Of a DNA stretch of 64,000 bases, positions 1,917 to 33,127 are shown in pieces (the first letter of the stretch is position 1; each line of letters starts with the position of its first letter). The stretch comes from Candidatus Doudnabacteria bacterium (GTDB lineage Bacteria; Patescibacteriota; Doudnabacteria; UBA920; O2-02-FULL-48-8). A program made the position numbers and the translations under genes. The DNA lies in contig JACPFQ010000001.1 in the NCBI GenBank assembly GCA_016182875.1, positions 85,680 through 149,679 of the forward strand, given 5' to 3'. A model generated the notes under the pieces. It was given only the letters and a program-made list of their open reading frames with translations, searched no databases and was not told where the DNA came from.

Positions 1917-2240
1917 TCACCTCTTGCGCGCGCGCTTCTTGCGCGGAGCTATCGAATGCTGTTCGACGAAGGCTTTTGCGTGAGCAATCAGGCTTCTGAT
2001 GCCTTCACAGGCCTGTTCCGGTATGACCTCATCGTTCCACACGCGGCTGACCAGTTTATCAACCGAGAGTTTAATCGGTCGGTCGGAAGTGCACACGCGC
2101 TTAAAATTGGCCTCCAGATCAGCGACGAACAGCTTGAAGATCATCAGTTCGTGGACGCTGAAACTGTTATTCTTCCGCAGCCTCCGCAGAAGTATAAGGC
2201 CATCTTCCAGGCGGCTTTCGGGAGTTACTGGTTCAAGCAT
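1917..2240 (-). CDS. Hypothetical 107-aa protein with a basic C-terminus (PRKKRARKR), in a GC-rich mini-island
   Basis: Strong SD on the minus strand (AGGAGGATTCAC-ATG). Local GC is about 58%, well above the neighbours. No recognisable domain. Confidence 0.4.
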   Translation of the reverse strand: MLEPVTPESRLEDGLILLRRLRKNNSFSVHELMIFKLFVADLEANFKRVCTSDRPIKLSVDKLVSRVWNDEVIPEQACEGIRSLIAHAKAFVEQHSIAPRKKRARKR

Positions 2241-2334
2241 GTGAATCCTCCTACTTTGGGGTCAGTGAATCCCGCGATGTAAAATTGATTATACCTTGTT
2301 TTTAGCTTTATGACTAGGGTAGAATAAATAAGCA

Positions 2335-2952
2335 ATGGCACTACTTCCGAAGTCGATTCAAAACCTGATCAATGAACTGTCCAAGCTTCCGGGCATCGGG
2401 CAAAAAACCGCCCAGCGGCTGACTTTCTACCTGCTCAAACAGCCGCAAATCGAGCGGCAGGGGTTTTCCAAAGCCGTGGAAAGTTTGGGCAAAGACATTA
2501 TCTATTGCTCCATCTGCCATAACATGGCAGATGCCGACCCATGCAAGATTTGTTCAGACGTAAAAAGAGATAAAAGCATCATTTGCGTCCTCGAAGATCC
2601 GTTGGATGTCGTGGCCATGGACCAGCTCGCGGACTTCAGAGGCGTTTACCATGTGCTGGGCGGCGCCATTTCGCCGCTCGAAGGCATTGGACCGGAAAAT
2701 CTCAAAATCTCAGAATTGCTCAAAAGGCTCTCGGAAAACCAAGAGCCTAAAGAAATTATTTTGGCCACCAATCCGTCCATGGAAGGCGAAGCCACAGCCA
2801 TGTATATAGCAAAACAAATCAAAATTCAAAATTCAAAATTCAAAAATATAAAAGTCACCCGCATCGGCCGCGGCCTGCCTATGGGCGGCGACCTTGAGTA
2901 CGCGGATGAGTATACGCTCTCTAAGGCACTCGAAGGACGGCGAGAGTATTAG
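2335..2952 (+). CDS. recR: Recombination protein RecR
   Basis: HhH '[12 protein letters not shown]', C4 zinc finger '[18 protein letters not shown]', and a Toprim domain with '[15 protein letters not shown]'. Contains an in-frame (CAAAATT)3 heptamer repeat at 2820-2840. Confidence 0.93.
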
Positions 2953-2989
2953 TAATTAGTAAGGAGTAATAAGTAGTTAGAATAAAACA

Positions 2990-3016
2990 AAACTGCAGGA
3001 TAATTTCTGCAGTTTT
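2990..3016. terminator. Bidirectional rho-independent terminator between convergent recR and rplU
   Basis: AAAACTGCAG-gataattt-CTGCAGTTTT: an 8-bp stem with A-run and T-run flanks, embedded in a larger palindrome spanning 2955-3040. Confidence 0.6.
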
Positions 3017-3044
3017 CTAATTACTATTTACTTATTACTATTTC

Positions 3045-3359
3045 CTAACTTATTGACTCAATCTGCACCACAGTTTGCTGCTGCCGGTGCCCGTACTTTC
3101 TTCGATACCTGGACTTAGCACGATATTTAAAAACCACAAGCTTATCAGCTTTATTTTGGTCAATGACTTTGCCTATTACTTTAGCGCCGGAAACATAAGG
3201 CTTGCCTAAATCAAATTTACCTTCATCAGAAACCAGCAGTACCTTATCAAAAGTAACGCTGTCCCCTGCTTTGCCGGGAAGCTTTTCGATTATCAACTTT
3301 TCATTTGGAGAAACCAGGTATTGTTTGCCGCCGGTTTCAATCACTGCCTGTTTTGCCAT
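3045..3359 (-). CDS. rplU: 50S ribosomal protein L21
   Basis: 'MAKQAVIETGGKQYLVSPNEKLIIEKL...VVFKYRAKSRYRRKYGHRQ' is the L21 signature. Start taken at the MAKQ methionine. Confidence 0.9.
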   Translation of the reverse strand: MAKQAVIETGGKQYLVSPNEKLIIEKLPGKAGDSVTFDKVLLVSDEGKFDLGKPYVSGAKVIGKVIDQNKADKLVVFKYRAKSRYRRKYGHRQQQTVVQIESIS

Positions 3360-3416
3360 ACCGTGATATGTTAGCATAAAAATAGCTTTCGGGTCAATCT
3401 TGCGAAATATCCGCCT

Positions 3417-3445
3417 AAAAGCCCCGGCACTTACCCGGGGCTTTT
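3417..3445. terminator. Hairpin AAAAGCCCCGG-cacttac-CCGGGGCTTTT in the rplU upstream region; terminator or attenuator-like
   Basis: 9-bp GC stem flanked by A and T runs on both strands. Function unknown. Confidence 0.4.
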
Positions 3446-3665
3446 AGCAAACGTGGTGCTTTTCCATATTGTGTTTTTCCCTCGATTAGGCTAACCGCCT
3501 TATGGCTTTCCACAAATTTTTTTGGAAAAGCATACGTGCGTTACGGCCTGTCGCATCTTTATATCTCTCCTTTCGCCACAATTTTAACGCTTCTGCCGCG
3601 GATTGTAAATAAAAATTCCGTTTTTCTTTGAATTTCAGCAAAATAGGGCCAAATTCAGGTAATAA

Positions 3666-25844: not shown

Positions 25845-26003
25845 ATATTTATCCATAATGGCAGTTGCATCGTAACCATACTCTTCGGCTTGTTTCAAGA
25901 TTTCTTTCAACTCACCTTTCTTTATAAGAATAAACCCTGATTTTCTCAGGGCCTTAAGGATTCTCGACTGCGAGACATCAGACGGTAACTTAGGTGGTAA
26001 CAT
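25845..26003 (-). pseudogene. HicA-like toxin remnant (52 aa, lacks the central GSH segment)
   Basis: 'MLPPKLPSDVSQSRILKALRKSGFILIKKGE..LKEILKQAEEYG' matches the HicA N- and C-terminal segments but not the catalytic core. Overlaps the upstream gene by 14 nt. Confidence 0.35.
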
Positions 26004-26328
26004 GAACTAATTGATTTTGTTTCTCAAACAGGTCACCTTTGATATTGATTAAGGCAGGGTGGCAGAACCGCGCCGGAACTTCAAACGCTGTAAAAATAGC
26101 ATCTTTGATATTGTGCTCTAATTCCTCTATTGTGGCCCCACTGGTGATTATAGTACCTCGAGTGTAGTCAACAGAGCGGGCAACGAAGTATGATTGTCCG
26201 TCTTCTTCAACTTTCTCAAATCGAAAATTAATACCTCTACCCCTTAACTCAACAAGCATATCTTCTAGATTATCATGAGCTTGATTTTTTGTAGCAGTAT
26301 ATGATTGTATTCTTTGTAGTAATCTCAT
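25990..26328 (-). CDS. HicB/UPF0150-like antitoxin-fold protein
   Basis: 'FRFEKVEEDGQSYFVARSVDYTRGTIITSGATIEELEHNIKDAIFTAFE'. Confidence 0.5.
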   Translation of the reverse strand: MRLLQRIQSYTATKNQAHDNLEDMLVELRGRGINFRFEKVEEDGQSYFVARSVDYTRGTIITSGATIEELEHNIKDAIFTAFEVPARFCHPALINIKGDLFEKQNQLVHVTT

Positions 26329-26331
26329 GAT

Positions 26332-26403
26332 TTAATTATAGTCTAATCGTTTTAGGTGGTCAATAAACAAAAACCCAACAGCCACCATCAAAAAATCTCT
26401 CAT
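26332..26403 (-). pseudogene. Truncated duplicate of the 5' end of gene 25499-25831 (MRDFLMVAVGFLFIDHLKRLDYN*)
   Basis: ATGAGAGATTTTTTGATG plus a conserved upstream 'TTAATTAAA' are identical to the intact gene start. Confidence 0.5.
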
Positions 26404-26441
26404 AAATTATTTAATTAAATTCCAAGAATTCAGATTTTTAC

Positions 26442-26850
26442 CTACTGAACCATAATAGTATAGTTTAGAGTAATAACACCAGTTTTTAATTTATGAAATA
26501 CAAAAAGATACGCAGGTTTGTTCCGCTGATTTTTCTTAATCTTTAATTTCCTACTAACCTGGTCCAATAACTTTATTGGTAAGATAATAAATTCGTTGAT
26601 TCCCGTTTCACGGGTACGCGCTACTAGCACAGTAAAAACTCTTGACTCAACAAACTGAAAAGTGCCCAGTCTTATTCCAATGCTTTGTCTTGACCTGAAT
26701 AAGATAAGTCCTTGCTTCTTTTATTGCAGCAATATCCACACCATAATCAACCGGCAAAATATTTGCATTAAACCCCCGAAACAAAAGCTCGCTCATAACA
26801 GCAGCTTCTCCGCCTTTACCAGTAAAGATATTGATTGATCTCTTGTCCAT
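26442..26850 (-). other. Two small ORFs (62 and 67 aa); the 67-aa ORF has a PD-(D/E)xK-like signature (VDYGVDIAAIKEARTYLIQVK), possibly nuclease gene remnants
   Basis: ORFs at 26442-26630 and 26647-26850, in a region full of gene fragments. Confidence 0.3.
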
Positions 26851-26906
26851 AGATAAAGTCTACCACAAAAGAAAAAGCGTCTTTAGCCAACGTCAACCTT
26901 TATGAT

Positions 26907-26937
26907 ATTCTCACATTCTCAAGAATATTGGAATGTC
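26907..26937. promoter_or_regulatory. 31-bp repeat copy 3
   Basis: Identical core. Confidence 0.45.
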
Positions 26938-27040
26938 AATTCCGTTTTCGACACATTTGTACCAATATCCGAATTGCACCTGCCCAGCCGTCTGGCGGGG
27001 TAATTAAGCAAATCAAGGTTCGATCATGAAGAGTTCTAAT

Positions 27041-27071
27041 ATTCTCACATTCTCAAGAATGTCGGAATGTC
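27041..27071. promoter_or_regulatory. 31-bp repeat copy 4 (variant ..AAGAATGTCGGAATGTC)
   Basis: Truncates the gene-start fragment at 27045-27107. Confidence 0.45.
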
Positions 27072-27107
27072 TAAGAACCCGACAGCAACCAATAAAAAAT
27101 CTCTCAT
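27045..27107 (-). pseudogene. Second truncated duplicate of the 25499-25831 gene start (MRDFLLVAVGFLDIPTFLRM*)
   Basis: Same ATGAGAGATTTTTT start. The reading frame runs into the 31-bp repeat. Confidence 0.45.
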
Positions 27108-27877
27108 AGTGGAATGGATGTAAATGACTGTCGAGAATTTCTTTCAAATTGCCTTAGTTCTTCTTCGCGGATAATCGAATAACGAGAATCATTAAGCCTC
27201 TCCAACGGACAGAAAAATAACCGCGCGGGTTTTTTGGGACTGCCTCCCACTCCGATTACCACAAAAACAGACATCCCCTGTTTTCTACCATATTCTCTAT
27301 AATTTTCTCCCTTCCTTTTGTCCCAGTCTATGCCGCCCTTAAAAAAATATGAGCGATACTTACACTCAACCGCCAATATCTTTCCTGTCCCAATATGCCG
27401 GAAGGTAAAATCAGGATTAGAGTCGGATTCCACTGTCCGTTTAAGAATCTTTGAAAAATCCCTGGTCTTATCAACAACAACCCAGATATCTCTTGGAAAA
27501 AGAGAGGCTACATGGCTTTCGAACTTATAACCTTTTCCGAAGGTGTCATAATAAAGCCAAAGGAAAACCCCGAACACAATCGCGACTACTAAATCTAACA
27601 CCTGCCAAATCTTAGCGTTATGCAGATAAATTGGGACAACCGGATTGAAGAGTATAACTGCTCCAATAAATCCCAGGATCCAGTAAATTTTTCTGCTCCG
27701 GTAAGCAATAAAACTAAGAACAATACCAGCCAAGCTAACAAGCCATCGCAATATGCCAAAGTCGCCTCGATACAAACCCGCCGCTGCGACTAGTAGTGTG
27801 ATGATAACTATCCAGATTAAAATACGCGTTATAACTTCCGGATTCATAAATTTATACCTTTTGCTTAAGTTTACCAC
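27104..27877 (-). CDS. Membrane-anchored NERD (nuclease-related domain) protein
   Basis: 3-4 N-terminal TM helices, then C-terminal 'GKGYKFESHVASLF...DFTFRHIGTGKILAVECKYRS...SVFVVIG', the NERD/PD-(D/E)xK pattern. Confidence 0.6.
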   Translation of the reverse strand: MVNLSKRYKFMNPEVITRILIWIVIITLLVAAAGLYRGDFGILRWLVSLAGIVLSFIAYRSRKIYWILGFIGAVILFNPVVPIYLHNAKIWQVLDLVVAIVFGVFLWLYYDTFGKGYKFESHVASLFPRDIWVVVDKTRDFSKILKRTVESDSNPDFTFRHIGTGKILAVECKYRSYFFKGGIDWDKRKGENYREYGRKQGMSVFVVIGVGGSPKKPARLFFCPLERLNDSRYSIIREEELRQFERNSRQSFTSIPL

Positions 27878-28035
27878 AAAACAAAAACTATCGTCATTTG
27901 ACGTCGTCTAATAATAATTAGTATTCAGGTTATTGACTAATTTACTTCCGAATAATAAAATTAAGGTATGGTGGAGGCGCGAGAGACACCAAAACCACGA
28001 AAGGTCGAAAATAATTAATTTAAAGGACCAATAAA

Positions 28036-28257
28036 ATGGCCAATCAGCATATTGTTTACCGAGGGCACAATGAATGGGCGGTTAGACGCGAAAAAGCTAG
28101 CCGAGATACAATCGTTGTAGACAATCAGCAAGAAGCTTTTGATATTGCAAGAGATATTGCTGAAAATCAAGGTGGCGAAGTGTTTATTCACGGCAGAGAC
28201 GGTAAAATCCGTGAACGGAATACTTACAAGGATGACCCCTATCCGCCAAAGGGTTAA
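28036..28257 (+). CDS. DUF2188-domain protein
   Basis: '...GGEVFIHGRDGKIRERNTYKDDPYPPKG' (DUF2188 C-terminal signature). Confidence 0.65.
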   Translation: MANQHIVYRGHNEWAVRREKASRDTIVVDNQQEAFDIARDIAENQGGEVFIHGRDGKIRERNTYKDDPYPPKG

Positions 28258-28288
28258 TTAATAACCTGAAAATGAAAACAAAAAATTA

Positions 28289-28317
28289 AAAACCGCCAGA
28301 ACTACTGGCGGTTTTTG
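28289..28317. terminator. Bidirectional terminator between the convergent DUF2188 genes
   Basis: AAAACCGCCAG-aacta-CTGGCGGTTTTT. Confidence 0.65.
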
Positions 28318-28323
28318 CTTTAT

Positions 28324-28620
28324 CTAATTTTTAGGTGGATATGGATCAGAAGAATAAAACCTGGTTTCAATAAGGCCATTTCTATTGTGAATAAAGATCT
28401 CTCCCCCATTTTGGCCAGTGTCTTCCCTAGCCTTTGATAAGGCTTCATCACGAGTACTATATCTTTTTTCTTCCCTAGCTCCAATTCTTTTTACTTTCCA
28501 TTCTCCATCTTTTGGAAAAATATGAACATTTCTCTGCCCACGCTTAATAGCCTCAGTATATGATCTTATCTGGGGATTATTCTTATTATTTCTTTTCAAT
28601 GGTATTTCTTTAGGTGCCAT
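28324..28620 (-). CDS. DUF2188-domain protein (paralog)
   Basis: '...NGGEIFIHNRNGLIETRFYSSDPYPPKN'. Confidence 0.65.
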   Translation of the reverse strand: MAPKEIPLKRNNKNNPQIRSYTEAIKRGQRNVHIFPKDGEWKVKRIGAREEKRYSTRDEALSKAREDTGQNGGEIFIHNRNGLIETRFYSSDPYPPKN

Positions 28621-28624
28621 ATGT

Positions 28625-29221
28625 CTATTCTGAAACCAATTTGATTATATCATCTTTAGTATATTGATTTTCTCTTAAATAGGCAAGCAAATCACCTCTA
28701 GTTTCAAATTTTAACTCGGTAAAACTCAAATCTTCCCCTAAATAAGCGTTCTTGATAAGTTTGATCTCTACGTGAGGATAGTTTTCTGCTATCCAAAGCA
28801 AGGTCTTCCTTGCTGAGGAATGTTTTTCATAAAAGTATCTGTCACTAAATTTTCTGTCCCGGTTAAGAAATGCAACGAAGGCTTGTTTGAAATCTTGGGG
28901 CCAAACGGCATGAATTTCTATCTTTTTCTTAGATTTACTAATTCTTCCTATTTTAATTCCTGCGCCTTTTTCGGTTGGAAGTATACCGTCTAGGACGATT
29001 AAATCTTGCTTATCTAAATATTCTGAAAAATATTCGGTTTTTCCAGATGCAGGTCCACCAGACAATAAAACGACCTTTTCAAATTTAGATGTTTTAATTG
29101 TCTCGTAAAGCTTTGCGTCGGCTAACTTAGCAGATTCACTATGAAATTCCTCAGATCGTTCTGGCGAGTATCCTGGTAAATCCTTTTTAATATCATCAGC
29201 AGAAATCAATATCGAAGTCAT
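28625..29221 (-). CDS. P-loop kinase, zeta-toxin/AAA_33-like
   Basis: Walker A 'LSGGPASGKTEYF', about 200 aa, nucleotide-kinase-like. The family assignment is tentative. Confidence 0.45.
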   Translation of the reverse strand: MTSILISADDIKKDLPGYSPERSEEFHSESAKLADAKLYETIKTSKFEKVVLLSGGPASGKTEYFSEYLDKQDLIVLDGILPTEKGAGIKIGRISKSKKKIEIHAVWPQDFKQAFVAFLNRDRKFSDRYFYEKHSSARKTLLWIAENYPHVEIKLIKNAYLGEDLSFTELKFETRGDLLAYLRENQYTKDDIIKLVSE

Positions 29222-29326
29222 TTATATAAATTTATTCATTTTCTTCAATTTCAAATCCTAGTTTGTTTTGCAGTTCTTTCGGTTGTAATAATAAGGTAAA
29301 ATAACCTAAAACTCCTTCAATCCGTA

Positions 29327-29644
29327 TTAATAAAATTCTCTATCAACATAAATTTCTGAAGAATAAATCTTACGTTCTGGGCCGCTCATTACTAATCGTG
29401 GCTTAATTTCTGATTGAGGTATTGTAAAGTCATGTAAATCTTCTCCAGATGCTACAGCTAGCTCTTTTATGCAATCATTAAACTCATTAGCATATTTCCC
29501 TTGTACATGAGATTTAGGCAAATTATTTTTTAACGCTGTCAATTTAGATAACGATCTGGCGAGTTGCTTATCCATAATTGAAGGATTCTTATATTTTAGA
29601 AAAACCAAAATCTTTTCCGACAGGTTTAAGTTCTTGATTATCAA
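29327..29644 (-). CDS. Hypothetical 105-aa protein, translationally coupled to the upstream EVE-nuclease gene
   Basis: ATGA overlap with the 29641-30693 gene. No recognisable domain. Confidence 0.4.
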   Translation of the reverse strand: MIIKNLNLSEKILVFLKYKNPSIMDKQLARSLSKLTALKNNLPKSHVQGKYANEFNDCIKELAVASGEDLHDFTIPQSEIKPRLVMSGPERKIYSSEIYVDREFY

Positions 29645-30693
29645 CAGTGTTCTAAATAATTAATAAAATCAATATATTTTTTATCGGTTGGTTCCCGTGA
29701 TGGGACTAAAATCCTGTATTGGTCCTCAAAAGTTATATTCTTTTCTTTTTTGAATTTATTGATCTCAAAATAATCATATTCATATAGTTGCACTATTCCT
29801 TTTCGTGCTTGGACTTTAAAATTTCTGTTTTCTGTACTTTTTACTTCAAAGAGAAATGAACGCTTACCGTCATGCGCAAACAAATCAACATACTCATTAG
29901 AAAGCGTAGCATATCCCTTCTTTCTAAATATGCTTATCAGTTGTTCAAGGACAGAATGATGAGATGCTTCTGCTCGAGCCAGAATATCATTATCTCGCTC
30001 GACTATAGAATAAGGTTTAATTATTAATCGCTTCTTGATTGATTCTAAAAATCTCAAGGAAGCTGCGTGTCTTAGAGTTTCAGTTGCATTATGAACTTCA
30101 ACTAAATCTGATGCCTTCTGTTCAATCGCGGGACCACGAGTTGAGTGTCCGGTATATAAATGTAATGGCCTATTTTGAAATAAAATTTGTTGAGCAACTT
30201 CGGGCCGTACCGTGGAAAAACTACCCATTTGTGGGAAACCCTTAATTTCTGAAATTGGGATTCGATTTCCAACCAGTTGACTAATCAGTGGAACCGTAGC
30301 AACATCATTGGCTGGTGTGGGTGATTCCCAATTTGCAGGATTAGGTAATTCGCCGAATAAATATATTTCAGTTAACGGAACTAATAATGGCCAACGGTTT
30401 ACATTGTTTTTTATTTCATAATGCCATAAATAGTTATTTTTTATCGAAAAATCAAAACCAACTACTCCAATTCCGATTATGCCGGATTTAGCTACGCCCG
30501 GGAAAGCTGAAGTATCTCCTGATGAACTATGAATAAAAAATATATCGCCTGTTTGCAATTTTTCCCAATCTTTTCTATTTTTGTCTTTAGCTTCAAGTCC
30601 CCAAGTAAAATATTTAATAGCGGTCAACCAGTGCTCAGGCGGACCAGTAAACTTAAAAAACTGTTTTTGATTTAGAGCCGAAGAAAGATCCAT
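29641..30693 (-). CDS. EVE (PUA-like) domain fused to a PD-(D/E)xK nuclease (DUF3883-like); putative modification-dependent restriction endonuclease
   Basis: N-terminus 'KQFFKFTGPPEHWLTAIKYFTWGLE...LQTGDIFFIHSSSG...GIIGIGVV' is EVE-like. C-terminus 'VDLFAHDGKRSFLFEVKSTENRNFKVQARKGIVQLYEY' carries D...E-x-K. Confidence 0.55.
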   Translation of the reverse strand: MDLSSALNQKQFFKFTGPPEHWLTAIKYFTWGLEAKDKNRKDWEKLQTGDIFFIHSSSGDTSAFPGVAKSGIIGIGVVGFDFSIKNNYLWHYEIKNNVNRWPLLVPLTEIYLFGELPNPANWESPTPANDVATVPLISQLVGNRIPISEIKGFPQMGSFSTVRPEVAQQILFQNRPLHLYTGHSTRGPAIEQKASDLVEVHNATETLRHAASLRFLESIKKRLIIKPYSIVERDNDILARAEASHHSVLEQLISIFRKKGYATLSNEYVDLFAHDGKRSFLFEVKSTENRNFKVQARKGIVQLYEYDYFEINKFKKEKNITFEDQYRILVPSREPTDKKYIDFINYLEHC

Positions 30694-31040
30694 TATAATT
30701 TATTGTACTTAGTATGTTTCCCTTTGGCTTTGTCTACTGGGTATTTCTTCTCGTTCTGTTCCATTTTTTTATGAAAAGCTTCAATTATATCAACACCAAT
30801 ATCATTACTGATAAGCAATACCCAATAAAGGACGTCGGACAATTCTTCAGCTACTTCTTCTTTATGATCTTTCACATACGCTTCCATTTCTTCTTTGTTT
30901 TTCCATTGAAAATGCTCAGCCACTTCCGCAGCTTCTAACATCAAGGACAAGGCTAAGTCTTTAGGATTATGAAACTGCTTCCACTCTCTATCATCTCTGT
31001 ATTTAATTATTCTGTCAGTTAAATCTTTTATATCCGACAT
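30693..31040 (-). CDS. MazG-like nucleoside-triphosphate pyrophosphohydrolase (all-alpha dUTPase/dCTPase-like)
   Basis: 'EWKQFHNPKDLALSLMLEAAEVAEHFQWK...ELSDVLYWVLLISNDIGVDI'. Its stop overlaps the start of the EVE gene. Confidence 0.7.
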   Translation of the reverse strand: MSDIKDLTDRIIKYRDDREWKQFHNPKDLALSLMLEAAEVAEHFQWKNKEEMEAYVKDHKEEVAEELSDVLYWVLLISNDIGVDIIEAFHKKMEQNEKKYPVDKAKGKHTKYNKL

Positions 31041-31442: not shown

Positions 31443-31692
31443 TCAGACCCGCCGGAAGTCTCGGCCTTCGGACGGTTGGTACAACCCAAGCTTGCGGTTG
31501 CTGCGGTTGGGGAAGACCGGGATGGTGCCTGCGATGAACCTGCCGAGGTCTGTAACCTCGCGGTCATAGCGTTTGGCCCGCACCCAATCTTCTCTCTTGA
31601 CGGCCCGGCCACGAAGTTTCTCGTAGCGCTTCTTGAGGAACTCGGCTGCCGCCAGTTCATTCATGTACTTGATTTGCTCCAACCCGTGCATA
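31443..31692 (-). CDS. Hypothetical 82-aa ORF downstream of the DUF62 gene
   Basis: Starts at MHGLEQ and overlaps the 3' end of the DUF62 gene by about 35 nt. Sits in the GC-rich island. Weak support. Confidence 0.3.
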
Positions 31693-32481
31693 CTCACCTC
31701 CTGCTTCATGAACGGCCAGTAAATCACCGACCTTAAGTCCCAATCTTGCCGCTGCCGACCCGCCCTTGACCACGATTTCGAGGAACCGCGTATTAGCAAG
31801 CCCCGAACTGCCGATGACCACGGCCAACTCGCCTTCCGGCACGTCACAGAGCCGCGGGTAAACCGGCAGATGTCCCAGATATTGCCGGTACCGCCGGTCA
31901 GACAAGCCAACCACATCCTCGGTCGTCAGCGTGGTCTTGAGATTACCAAAGCAATCAACATACCAGACGACCTCCTCTGTCCACGGCTCAATTTCTTGCG
32001 GCGGACCCCCGTGAAAACCGACTGACTCGAACTCCGCAACAAGCAAAGGCAGAAAATCAAAGCTGCGGAATTGCGAACTTTCGATCTGCAGCCGCTCGTG
32101 GTCGTCGATAACCTGGGCGTAAACCAGCTGCTGCAGCGTGCGCGCGACATCAATCGGGTAGCAGGAACGAATGCCGACCTTGGGCAGCAGTCCCAGGGTG
32201 TTGACCGTCGTTACAACGAACGGGCCATCTTTGCATTCCACCTGTACGAACGGCGGGCCATTGGTACCTGACGTCTGCTCGTTCCGAGGTGCGACATTGC
32301 ACAGAATCCAGCCCGGTGCGTTCCCAGCCGCATCCAGCGCGTCGATCAGGCAGCCGGCGGCTTCGTACTCGTTGACCACAGGCATGGTGGTCACCGGACA
32401 ATTAAGCCAAGCAGCTGCTCTAGTAGACAGCCTCCCCAAAGCATTGGCATCGGAGCAGTCGTTGATTATGGTCACAAACAT
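31657..32481 (-). CDS. DUF62 family protein (SAM hydroxide adenosyltransferase / SAM-dependent halogenase (fluorinase/chlorinase) family)
   Basis: N-terminus 'MFVTIINDCSDANALGRL...', 'NVAPRNEQTSG', C-terminal 'LEIVVKGGSAAARLGLKVGDLLAV'. Perfect SD AAGGAGG. Coding GC is about 62%. Confidence 0.6.
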   Translation of the reverse strand: MFVTIINDCSDANALGRLSTRAAAWLNCPVTTMPVVNEYEAAGCLIDALDAAGNAPGWILCNVAPRNEQTSGTNGPPFVQVECKDGPFVVTTVNTLGLLPKVGIRSCYPIDVARTLQQLVYAQVIDDHERLQIESSQFRSFDFLPLLVAEFESVGFHGGPPQEIEPWTEEVVWYVDCFGNLKTTLTTEDVVGLSDRRYRQYLGHLPVYPRLCDVPEGELAVVIGSSGLANTRFLEIVVKGGSAAARLGLKVGDLLAVHEAGGEYARVGANQVHE

Positions 32482-32544
32482 CTTTGGCCTCCTTAGTGAT
32501 TCCGACGCTGCGGTCGGAATGATTTTACTTCGTAAAATCAAAAA

Positions 32545-32700
32545 GCCTCTTTCTTCATGAAAGAGGCTTGCCTAAGTACTTTTGGTGTCAAACCCGTCTA
32601 ACGGGTTAAATGCCCAAACAGGCCTCTTCCATGGAAAGAAGCCATCATCATAGCGCCCGAGCAGGTTCGATATAGGAATTTCATTAAGATTATCTTAAGC
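32545..32700 (-). promoter_or_regulatory. Riboswitch-like 5' leader of the DUF62 gene, with mutually exclusive terminator and antiterminator hairpins
   Basis: Minus-strand RNA has hairpin GGCUUCUUUCC-AUG-GAAGAGGCC, hairpin ACCCGU-UAG-ACGGGU, then terminator AAGCCUCUUUC-AUGAA-GAAAGAGGCUU plus UUUUGAUUUU 40 nt before the SD. The 3' half of the first hairpin can pair with the 5' half of the terminator. A GAUGAUGG k-turn-like element is present. Ligand class unassigned. Confidence 0.4.
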
Positions 32701-32724
32701 TTGAGTAAATAAAAAGTCAAATAA

Positions 32725-32758
32725 AAACCGGAGCGGACCGCGGGGTCTGCTCCGTTGG
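32725..32758 (-). terminator. Rho-independent terminator of gene 32801-33127
   Basis: On the minus strand: GGAGCAGACCC-cgc-GGTCCGCTCC followed by GGTTTTTATTT. Confidence 0.6.
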
Positions 32759-32800
32759 AATGCACAAACGGCCTGGGCGGCCGGCGATGGAATCAGGGAA

Positions 32801-33127
32801 TCACTGGTCGCCTGGAATACCAGTCCCCCTCGTGCTGGCAAAGAACACCGGAACCGCAACGCTTGCTGCCAGCATAACGACGCAGGTAGCAAACAGCCAG
32901 AACACTTCCTTGTAGAAGCTTGCGGCTCCAATGAGCGCGTATGTGGTCCGCGTCGCCCAGTGAGGCTTGCCCACAAGGAAGACGCAGAGGTAGAACACGA
33001 CATCGCGCAGCCCGTTGACCGGGCCGGTGTTGATCCTGGGTCTCGGAGTCGGCGGCAGAGACGCGTAGTCCTCGCCGCTATAGTGCCCGGTCTCACCGCG
33101 CATAAGAGCCTCCTTCCCATTGGACAT
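32801..33127 (-). CDS. Hypothetical small membrane protein (108 aa), in the GC-rich island
   Basis: Two TM helices, GC about 62%. A longer alternative ORF 32695-33165 overlaps. No homology recognised. Confidence 0.4.
   Translation of the reverse strand: MSNGKEALMRGETGHYSGEDYASLPPTPRPRINTGPVNGLRDVVFYLCVFLVGKPHWATRTTYALIGAASFYKEVFWLFATCVVMLAASVAVPVFFASTRGTGIPGDQ

Follow-up and report, generated by a model that had tools for sequence, protein, structure and literature searches.

The gene for a divergent DUF62-fold protein in a Candidatus Doudnabacteria bacterium (NCBI GenBank assembly GCA_016182875.1, contig JACPFQ010000001.1) is preceded by a leader that is probably a ribosome-mediated transcription attenuator of the trp type, with Met codons as the sensor. 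The predicted element is built on an apparently leaderless open reading frame (ORF) and is conserved in the candidate phyla radiation (CPR; Patescibacteria). It lies on the minus strand of a 64,000-nt stretch of that contig (positions 85,680 to 149,679 of the forward strand), referred to here as the window, and coordinates are those of the window unless another locus is named. The ORF, the Met runs, the terminator, an alternative pairing, its fixed spacing from the Met codons, covariation and conservation across the CPR were all computed from the sequences. Together, they comprise every feature by which a leader-peptide attenuator can be recognized in sequence: clustered regulatory codons, a terminator, a mutually exclusive antiterminator and the corresponding geometry.

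The leader lies between a gene for a 108-aa protein and the regulated gene, and consists of the following parts.

32729..32754, minus strand: upstream-gene terminator, CGGAGCAGACC-CCGC-GGUCCGCUCCG and then GUUUUUAU, separating the 108-aa gene from the leader unit.
32720-32715 and 32697-32692, minus strand: promoter-like site, TTGACT and TAAGAT with a 17-nt spacer.
32684-32598, minus strand: leader ORF of 28 codons, MKFLYRTCSGAMMMASFHGRGLFGHLTR, with its stop codon UAG (32600-32598) within the loop of hairpin 2.
32651-32643, minus strand: regulatory codons AUG-AUG-AUG (AUGAUGAUG), three consecutive in-frame Met codons of the leader ORF.
32643-32621, minus strand: hairpin 1, GGCUUCUUUCC-AU-GGAAGAGGCC, −9.7 kcal/mol for the 23-nt segment.
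32633..32643, minus strand: strand A, the 5ʹ arm of hairpin 1, GGCUUCUUUCC, whose first base is the last base of the Met run.
32621..32630, minus strand: strand B, GGAAGAGGCC, which serves as the 3ʹ arm in hairpin 1 and as the 5ʹ strand in the antiterminator, where strand C is its partner.
32606-32592, minus strand: hairpin 2, ACCCGU-UAG-ACGGGU, −5.9 kcal/mol, capping the extended antiterminator and holding the stop codon of the leader ORF in its loop.
32569-32559 and 32553-32543, minus strand: leader terminator stem, strand C (AAGCCUCUUUC), loop AUGAA and strand D (GAAAGAGGCUU).
32559..32631, minus strand: extended antiterminator helix, B and its flanks paired with C and its flanks, hairpin 2 at the tip, −29.4 kcal/mol.
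32521..32539, minus strand: hairpin 4, GAUUUUAC-GAA-GUAAAAUC, overlapping the distal U-tract.
32499..32520, minus strand: hairpin 5, AUUCCGAC-CGCAGC-GUCGGAAU, 8 bp, −9.9 kcal/mol, abutting the 5ʹ side of the Shine-Dalgarno (SD) sequence.
32494-32488, minus strand: SD sequence AAGGAGG, preceding the ATG of the regulated gene.
31657..32494, minus strand: SD sequence and regulated gene (ATG at 32481, 274 aa), encoding a divergent two-domain protein of the DUF62 fold (S-adenosylmethionine (SAM) hydrolase/chlorinase/fluorinase).

Hairpins 1 and 2, the intrinsic terminator and the SD sequence had been recognized in an initial annotation of this DNA, and all were located on the minus strand as described there. 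The Met-run ORF, the stop codon in the loop of hairpin 2, and hairpins 4 and 5 are additions to that list. What the annotation had taken for a GAUGA-type, k-turn-like motif proved to be the AUG-AUG-AUG Met codons of the leader ORF. This ORF is the only short ORF with consecutive Met codons in the window. Its ATG lies 7 nt past the −10 hexamer with no SD sequence ahead of it, and because the −10 box ends so close to the ATG, the ORF is probably leaderless or nearly so. The T-run of the upstream-gene terminator ends 3 nt before the −35 element of the leader promoter. With a separate terminator closing the upstream ORF and a promoter-like site of its own, the leader forms an autonomous transcription unit.

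The leader is far more structured than expected by chance. Its 213 nt fold with −74 kcal/mol, as compared to −52.5 ± 4.5 kcal/mol for dinucleotide shuffles (z = −4.76; none of 200 shuffles was as good), and hairpin 1 with its full stem reaches −13.4 kcal/mol (z = −4.35 versus shuffles). The leader terminator has an 11-bp stem (−15.8 kcal/mol) followed by the U-tract UUUUUGAUUUU; the whole element, 32534..32569, was independently recovered by a consensus terminator scan. Strand B resembles strand D, and the B:C duplex computed with RNAduplex has −13.9 kcal/mol (z = −3.76). In the minimum free energy fold of the full-length leader, the entire hairpin 1 region pairs with the entire terminator region (A with D and B with C), and there is no terminator. 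Because both the leader fold and the B:C duplex surpass shuffled sequences in energy, two structures compete for one strand, and they do so non-randomly.

Conservation of the leader was assessed at 82 loci that encode homologs of the 274-aa protein: the window's own contig, a second locus (L005), and loci from 80 Patescibacteria genomes found in a scan of one genome per species, whose encoded relatives are 36–43% identical. In about 30 of these 80 Patescibacteria loci, ATGATGATG occurs 95–200 nt upstream of the gene. We scored a locus as having a Met leader if an ORF of at most 70 codons, with at least three ATG codons within 7 codons, lay no more than 350 nt upstream of the gene. Such ORFs were found at 42 of the 82 loci, and at 33 with a requirement for at least four Met codons, as compared to none on the reverse complement and four in shuffled sequences. 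Examples are MNYATKSQHMMMAMM..., MNYATKSQHMMMAMMTLFPRRLVL, MRDTFAVMMMSMMMAGRLGPVRSRA and MKKNQLNNMSMMHMMT... With the limits set at 60 codons and four or more Met codons, there are 32 such ORFs in the 29 kb upstream of the genes and four in the 589 kb elsewhere, a ~160-fold enrichment; the four found elsewhere lie inside genes and were rejected as leaders. An intrinsic terminator lies between the leader ORF and the gene at 39 of the 42 Met-leader loci. The Met run is usually preceded by 6–12 ordinary codons, counted from the nearest in-frame ATG. At 38 loci, the distance from a −10-like hexamer to the leader ATG peaks at 6–9 nt, a TTGACA-like −35 element is often present as well, and none of these 38 ATG codons has an SD sequence ahead of it. 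Hence, judging by promoter placement, leader ORFs look leaderless across the family. A metagenome scan with ATGATGATGNNNATGATGAC for Met leaders ahead of other genes was overwhelmed by matches to (ATG)n microsatellites, and none of the eight candidates of the type “short ORF plus terminator” that it returned was credible as a leader.

The closest relatives indicate which parts of the leader are preserved. Four contigs that encode an identical protein also have identical leaders. At locus L086, the protein call is truncated (173 aa) and has 53% identity, covering 61% of the query; the −10 box TATTAT is followed by 6 nt and then the ATG, and the leader peptide is MNSSSFKQSANMMMASFHGRGLFGHFRLR, ending at a stop codon. 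Hairpin 1 has a compensatory C-G to U-G change and the terminator is unchanged. Hairpin 2 is replaced by an unrelated stem, CCGCC...GGCGG, and the stop codon is again in the loop. At L005, where the protein is 49% identical, the leader peptide ends in ...SMMMTSFQWKRSACI before the stop codon, and there is no hairpin 2. Compensatory changes are found in hairpin 1 (G-C to A-U) and in the terminator (U-A to C-G). Relative to the window, L005 also has a 1-nt indel in the loop of hairpin 1, such that the reading frame is shifted after codon 7 of the conserved block. This indel places conservation past the Met run at the level of RNA rather than peptide.

Two further observations concern these loci. 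The L086 gene (315-1080 of that locus) is split into the 173-aa call, 3 nt, and then an ORF for the C-terminal domain, reflecting either a frameshift or an assembly error in the contig. At L005, a gene for a 478-aa class I tRNA synthetase (2173-3609) lies 72 nt downstream of the DUF62-like gene. The synthetase matches both the MetRS-type family PF09334 and the CysRS-type family PF01406, and its N-terminus (PIYYVNDKPHIG) looks MetRS-like. In this single case, the leader could control a further gene related to methionine.

For each locus, we defined strand B as the best partner of the terminator 5ʹ arm between the last Met codon and the terminator. The distance from the last Met codon to the start of B is 9–15 nt at 33 of 39 loci, with a median and a mode of 11 nt. 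Ribosomes give toeprints at +15/16 from the P site, and the ribosomal helicase acts at +11. By these distances, a ribosome that holds a Met codon in its A site would have its leading edge at the start of B. At the other end, 31 of the 39 loci place the leader stop codon between −3 and +17 nt from where B ends; the gap is largest in the window, at 20 nt. With the stop codon so placed, a terminating ribosome would sit on or against B. In the window's subfamily, the A:B hairpin is strongest (z = −3.5 to −4.4), which fits the long distance between B and the stop codon in the window. We read this as two ways to keep B off C under fast translation: cover by the terminating ribosome, or recapture of B by A. 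Outside the window's subfamily, few leaders have a strong hairpin 1, and it was rejected as a universal element.

The alternative pairing itself is non-random by several measures. Across the 39 loci, the B:C duplex has a median z of −2.4 relative to shuffles, with 23 loci below −2. Strand B pairs better with its own C than with the C of other loci (summed normalized energy −33.3 versus −25.3 ± 1.2; ~6.9 standard deviations; 0 of 10,000 permutations). We aligned 37 leaders from the last two codons of the Met run to just past the terminator, using plain MAFFT without fitting to structure. In this alignment, 73.7% of cells are paired for B:C, and 32 cells are changed on both sides, as compared to 15.6 in shuffles; the covariation score is 0.309 versus 0.223 in shuffles (0 of 500), and controls in which the strands were slid reach at most 0.222. 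For C:D, 82.8% of cells are paired, 61 cells are changed on both sides versus 24.4 in shuffles, and the covariation score is 0.476 versus 0.269 (0 of 500). B:C and C:D cannot coexist because both use alignment columns 105–110. These data bear out the proposal of the initial annotation that the 3ʹ arms of hairpin 1 and of the terminator compete for one partner strand in the manner of an expression platform. The annotation had also suggested a search for such leaders at orthologous genes; they are conserved, and their pairing covaries.

How might this arrangement regulate the downstream gene? Four elements of the answer are inferred: where transcription starts, that ribosomes stall at the Met run, that translation and transcription are coupled, and what the enzyme does. 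The transcript would begin at or beside the AUG of the 28-codon leaderless ORF, and a ribosome trailing RNA polymerase would reach the three consecutive Met codons. If charged elongator Met-tRNA is ample, the ribosome would run to the stop codon in hairpin 2, occluding the antiterminator extension. Under such fast translation, either A would recapture B in hairpin 1 or the ribosome would cover B, leaving C to pair with D, and the terminator hairpin with its U-tract would end transcription ~60 nt ahead of the gene. If Met-tRNA is scarce, the ribosome would stall on the Met run and cover ~9–12 nt downstream, corresponding to strand A. B would then lie just past the leading edge of the stalled ribosome, free for the emerging C, and the two would form the extended helix of −29.4 kcal/mol. 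With C occupied, no terminator would form and the polymerase would read into the gene. Such a circuit would release methionine from SAM when methionine is short, because characterized relatives with the DUF62 fold yield adenosine and L-methionine from SAM.

The same antitermination switch could be thrown by an arrest peptide, that is, by a Met-rich nascent chain that stalls the ribosome, perhaps together with SAM or Met, irrespective of the supply of Met-tRNA. Ligand-sensing arrest peptides are known elsewhere, such as TnaC, and the plant CGS1 peptide senses SAM. The comparative data described above apply equally to such a peptide, since conservation of AUG is also conservation of the residue. 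However, an arrest peptide normally needs a defined sequence, and here the leaders differ widely in how many Met residues they have and how these are arranged (MMM, MMxMM, MMMxMMM, MSMMHMM), flanking residues are not conserved, and the frame differs between the window and L005 after codon 7. We consider an arrest peptide unlikely, though it is the best of the alternatives to a Met-codon attenuator.

It is also conceivable that an RNA-binding protein, in the manner of PyrR or TRAP, acts on the AUG repeats or on hairpin 1. The triplet repeats recall TRAP sites, and the three-hairpin geometry gives a weak match to the PyrR model (RF00515; 22.6 bits, E = 0.79), which is the best sub-threshold match of the leader in Rfam. 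The order of anti-antiterminator, antiterminator and terminator is indeed the same as in the PyrR attenuator, but the score is far under the gathering score of 54, and the regulated gene is not a pyr gene. Moreover, the AUG run is always in frame with a promoter-placed ATG and with a stop codon at B, neither of which a protein site needs, and there is no linked candidate for a regulator gene, although no search was aimed at a PyrR-type regulator; the downstream genes are not conserved. Attenuation by such a protein therefore seems to us quite improbable.

The initial annotation had favored a metabolite riboswitch, sensing SAM, S-adenosylhomocysteine (SAH), fluoride or a new ligand, with an aptamer that includes hairpins 1 and 2 and with the terminator as expression platform. 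The strong structure of the leader (z = −4.76), the mutually exclusive helices and the SAM-related gene downstream are all in keeping with this idea. Nonetheless, Rfam 15, which the annotation had proposed as a check, gave no match at gathering thresholds to any family in the whole 64-kb window, not even to tRNA, and in 20 homologous loci it gave unrelated tRNA genes only, and no riboswitch or leader family. The leaders for Trp, His, Leu, Thr and Phe and the T-box were without a match in the window and in these 20 loci. With the threshold relaxed to E ≤ 10, the interval 32380-32900 still had no match to a SAM, SAH, fluoride, preQ1, ZTP, T-box or amino-acid-leader model; what appeared (PyrR, sRNA, miRNA and CRISPR-DR models) we regard as hairpin-driven noise. 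The tRNA genes beside some leaders belong to ordinary tRNA clusters and are not consistently tRNA-Met. Furthermore, in the alignment of 37 leaders only the Met codons, strand B, the terminator (C and D) and the U-tract are conserved, and the segment from B to C is free in length and sequence. There is no conserved ligand-binding core, hairpin 2 is missing or replaced in relatives, and the would-be aptamer is mostly taken up by a conserved ORF that starts at the promoter and stops at B. Since the conserved “motif” is the Met run of a short ORF at a fixed distance from strand B, the leader bears the marks of leader-peptide attenuation rather than of an aptamer, and we place a riboswitch slightly below even the protein-binding attenuator. 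Least credible of all is an absence of regulation, in which a leftover intergenic terminator or stabilizer accompanies a chance ORF: an upstream gene does end nearby, and terminator-like sites are not enriched in the surrounding 2.2-kb region (3 observed versus 2.8 expected), but that gene has its own terminator and the leader its own promoter, and ~40 distant genomes share the ORF, the Met run, their spacing and the alternative pairing, with strong statistical support.

The nature of the regulated protein bears on the physiological side of the proposed attenuator. In Pfam, the 274-aa protein matches SAM_HAT_C only (E = 3.8e-11, 43.6 bits), with no match to SAM_HAT_N. A large protein collection holds 191 relatives at E ≤ 1e-5, and where organisms are named, all sources are Parcubacteria, Patescibacteria or other CPR lineages. 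An AlphaFold model built from 32 family members has a predicted local distance difference test (pLDDT) score of 87.6. The top 20 Foldseek matches of the model in the PDB are all DUF62, chlorinase or fluorinase chains, matched at full length over ~280 columns, with a best E of 1e-10, a template modeling (TM) score of ~0.6 and 15–18% identity. They include the (R)-SAM hydrolase MJ1651, the SAM hydroxide adenosyltransferase PH0463, the chlorinases SalL and ClA1, and fluorinase. Hence, the original call of the gene as DUF62 is correct at the level of the fold, an assignment that the structural model makes sound, but the protein is highly divergent in sequence. The CPR family has an invariant QFRS(F)D at residues ~136–141 (window ~32060-32075), and other invariant residues (D8, R17, R21, D47, D50, N62 and R66) mark it as a distinct subfamily. 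Characterized DUF62 enzymes hydrolyze SAM, with a preference for its inactive (R,S)-epimer, and yield adenosine and L-methionine; what they do in the cell is a matter of debate. By analogy, the regulated protein would cleave SAM to methionine and adenosine.

Several points weigh against the proposed Met-codon attenuator or its link to SAM cleavage. At equilibrium, the antiterminator (−29.4 kcal/mol) is far more stable than hairpins 1 and 2; the equilibrium thus favors the antiterminated fold, and termination would depend on kinetics and on the position of the ribosome. Across 40 leaders, the A:B hairpin is not significant (median z = −0.41). A shortage of Met also lowers fMet-tRNA, and hence initiation at the leader ORF, which by the classical model should result in termination, or super-attenuation. 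Met has a single codon, such that selection for the codon is inseparable from selection for a Met-rich peptide. The run in the window comprises only three Met codons, and many relatives have 4–6. The mechanism would require leaderless translation in these CPR hosts, which the promoter placement suggests. The leader is missing from about half of the homologous genes, mainly at Microgenomates-type loci where the gene closely follows another gene. With regard to the enzyme, NCBIfam models for (R)-SAM hydrolase score 26–27 bits, as compared to cut-offs of 350–470, and the canonical FHGRD of DUF62 aligns to QFRSFD in the regulated protein. The catalytic residues may therefore differ from those of characterized SAM hydrolases, and this divergence counts against the assumed reaction.

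Three of the Microgenomates-type loci (L043, L053 and L061) have no Met leader, and the homologous gene lies directly behind another ORF, the last residues of which are conserved (...CEAVGYPVLRLIRT.LG.W.LGD..VGKYRTL...). In these loci, the gene appears to be inside an operon.

We considered whether the regulated gene has a conserved operon partner, and rejected this because the genes downstream of it vary among loci; the unit is thus essentially monocistronic. In the window, an 82-aa ORF (31443-31691, minus strand), which is also called on public contigs, overlaps the 3ʹ end of the DUF62-like gene by ~35 nt. Neither Pfam nor NCBIfam has a family that matches it. A strong terminator (31435-31409) lies behind this ORF, which probably shares a transcript with the regulated gene. 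The two hairpins that separate the leader terminator from the SD sequence, 4 and 5, may function in mRNA stability or as a second, translational layer of control. Hairpin 5 is specific to the window; hairpin 4 is kept in L086 with different stem letters. None of the leader hairpins, including these two, has a further copy within the 64-kb window. Upstream of the leader, the 108-aa ORF (32801-33127, minus strand) has no family match and has a hydrophobic C-terminal half. Immediately downstream of the regulated gene's operon, positions 26000-31000 have a GC content of 0.32–0.39, as compared to 0.45–0.55 around, and include a 350-aa ORF with a weak match to an Hjc-like nuclease and a MazG-like pyrophosphohydrolase; this segment may have been acquired as an island. 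Elsewhere, the window has the content of an ordinary CPR chromosome, with genes for DnaB, MreB, glycolytic enzymes, class II tRNA synthetases, PBP2 and GreA.

How does the proposed Met-codon attenuator relate to known systems? Leader-peptide attenuation is textbook biology for Trp, His, Phe, Thr, Leu and Ile/Val; Cys is a more recent addition. As in the classical attenuators (trp, his, phe, thr, leu and ilv), there is a short ORF with a cluster of codons for one amino acid and a terminator ahead of the gene, an antiterminator strand that closely follows the regulatory codons on their 3ʹ side, an optional 1:2 hairpin and a stop codon placed to block the antiterminator. In contrast to those systems, the codons are for Met, the ORF is apparently leaderless and lacks an SD sequence, the hosts are CPR bacteria, the target is a single gene of the SAM-cleaving type rather than a biosynthetic operon, and there is no match to an Rfam leader.

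The nearest published analogue that we found is the set of leaderless poly-Cys short ORFs of mycobacteria, which constitute a Cys “ribulon” (Canestrari et al., bioRxiv 10.1101/834739). There, too, a leaderless short ORF at the 5ʹ end has a run of codons for a sulfur amino acid, a stalled ribosome remodels the downstream RNA, and genes for the metabolism of that amino acid are turned on. However, the mycobacterial mechanism is translational, unmasking a downstream ribosome-binding site, and its authors contrast it with terminator-based attenuation (10.1101/834739). In the leader described here, the output is a canonical intrinsic terminator and its U-tract. The codons are for Met rather than Cys, and the phylum is different.

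Premature termination in a 5ʹ leader also controls genes of methionine and SAM metabolism in the case of SAM riboswitches (S-box and others) and Met T-boxes. SAM riboswitches sense SAM directly and T-boxes sense uncharged tRNA by RNA-RNA contact, but neither element is present here. The polarity also differs, in that the gene described here is predicted to be induced by a shortage of Met in order to destroy SAM. In the literature searched, Met/SAM control is described via S-box riboswitches and T-boxes, with leader peptides listed only for other amino acids. We found no methionine leader peptide or attenuator, and no attenuation in Patescibacteria, in this literature, which included few papers from subscription journals, so an earlier description is possible. 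We see about an even chance that all of the following hold together: that this is the first described Met-sensing leader-peptide attenuator, that it is ancient and widespread in Patescibacteria, that it operates on a leaderless poly-Met ORF, and that it has the consequences set out below for coupling, for the sensing of Met-tRNA and for the DUF62-fold enzyme.

What would such an attenuator mean for these bacteria? The CPR/Patescibacteria are almost entirely uncultured, and the leader offers a rare handle on their gene regulation. If our proposal is correct, these reduced bacteria couple translation to transcription for the purpose of regulation, and read the charging of Met-tRNA directly. Transcription-translation coupling, leaderless initiation and σ70-like promoters would all be implied for the CPR. 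A Met-codon attenuator would fill a gap, since methionine control is described in the literature searched as based on riboswitches and T-boxes, and it would pose a mechanistic puzzle, methionine being needed for both initiation and elongation. The motif could also be used to seek other genes of a methionine “ribulon”. Lastly, the divergent DUF62-fold enzyme would be a SAM-cleaving salvage enzyme induced by methionine starvation. Induction under methionine shortage would argue for recovery of methionine from SAM as the function of DUF62-type enzymes, giving a role to a debated family.

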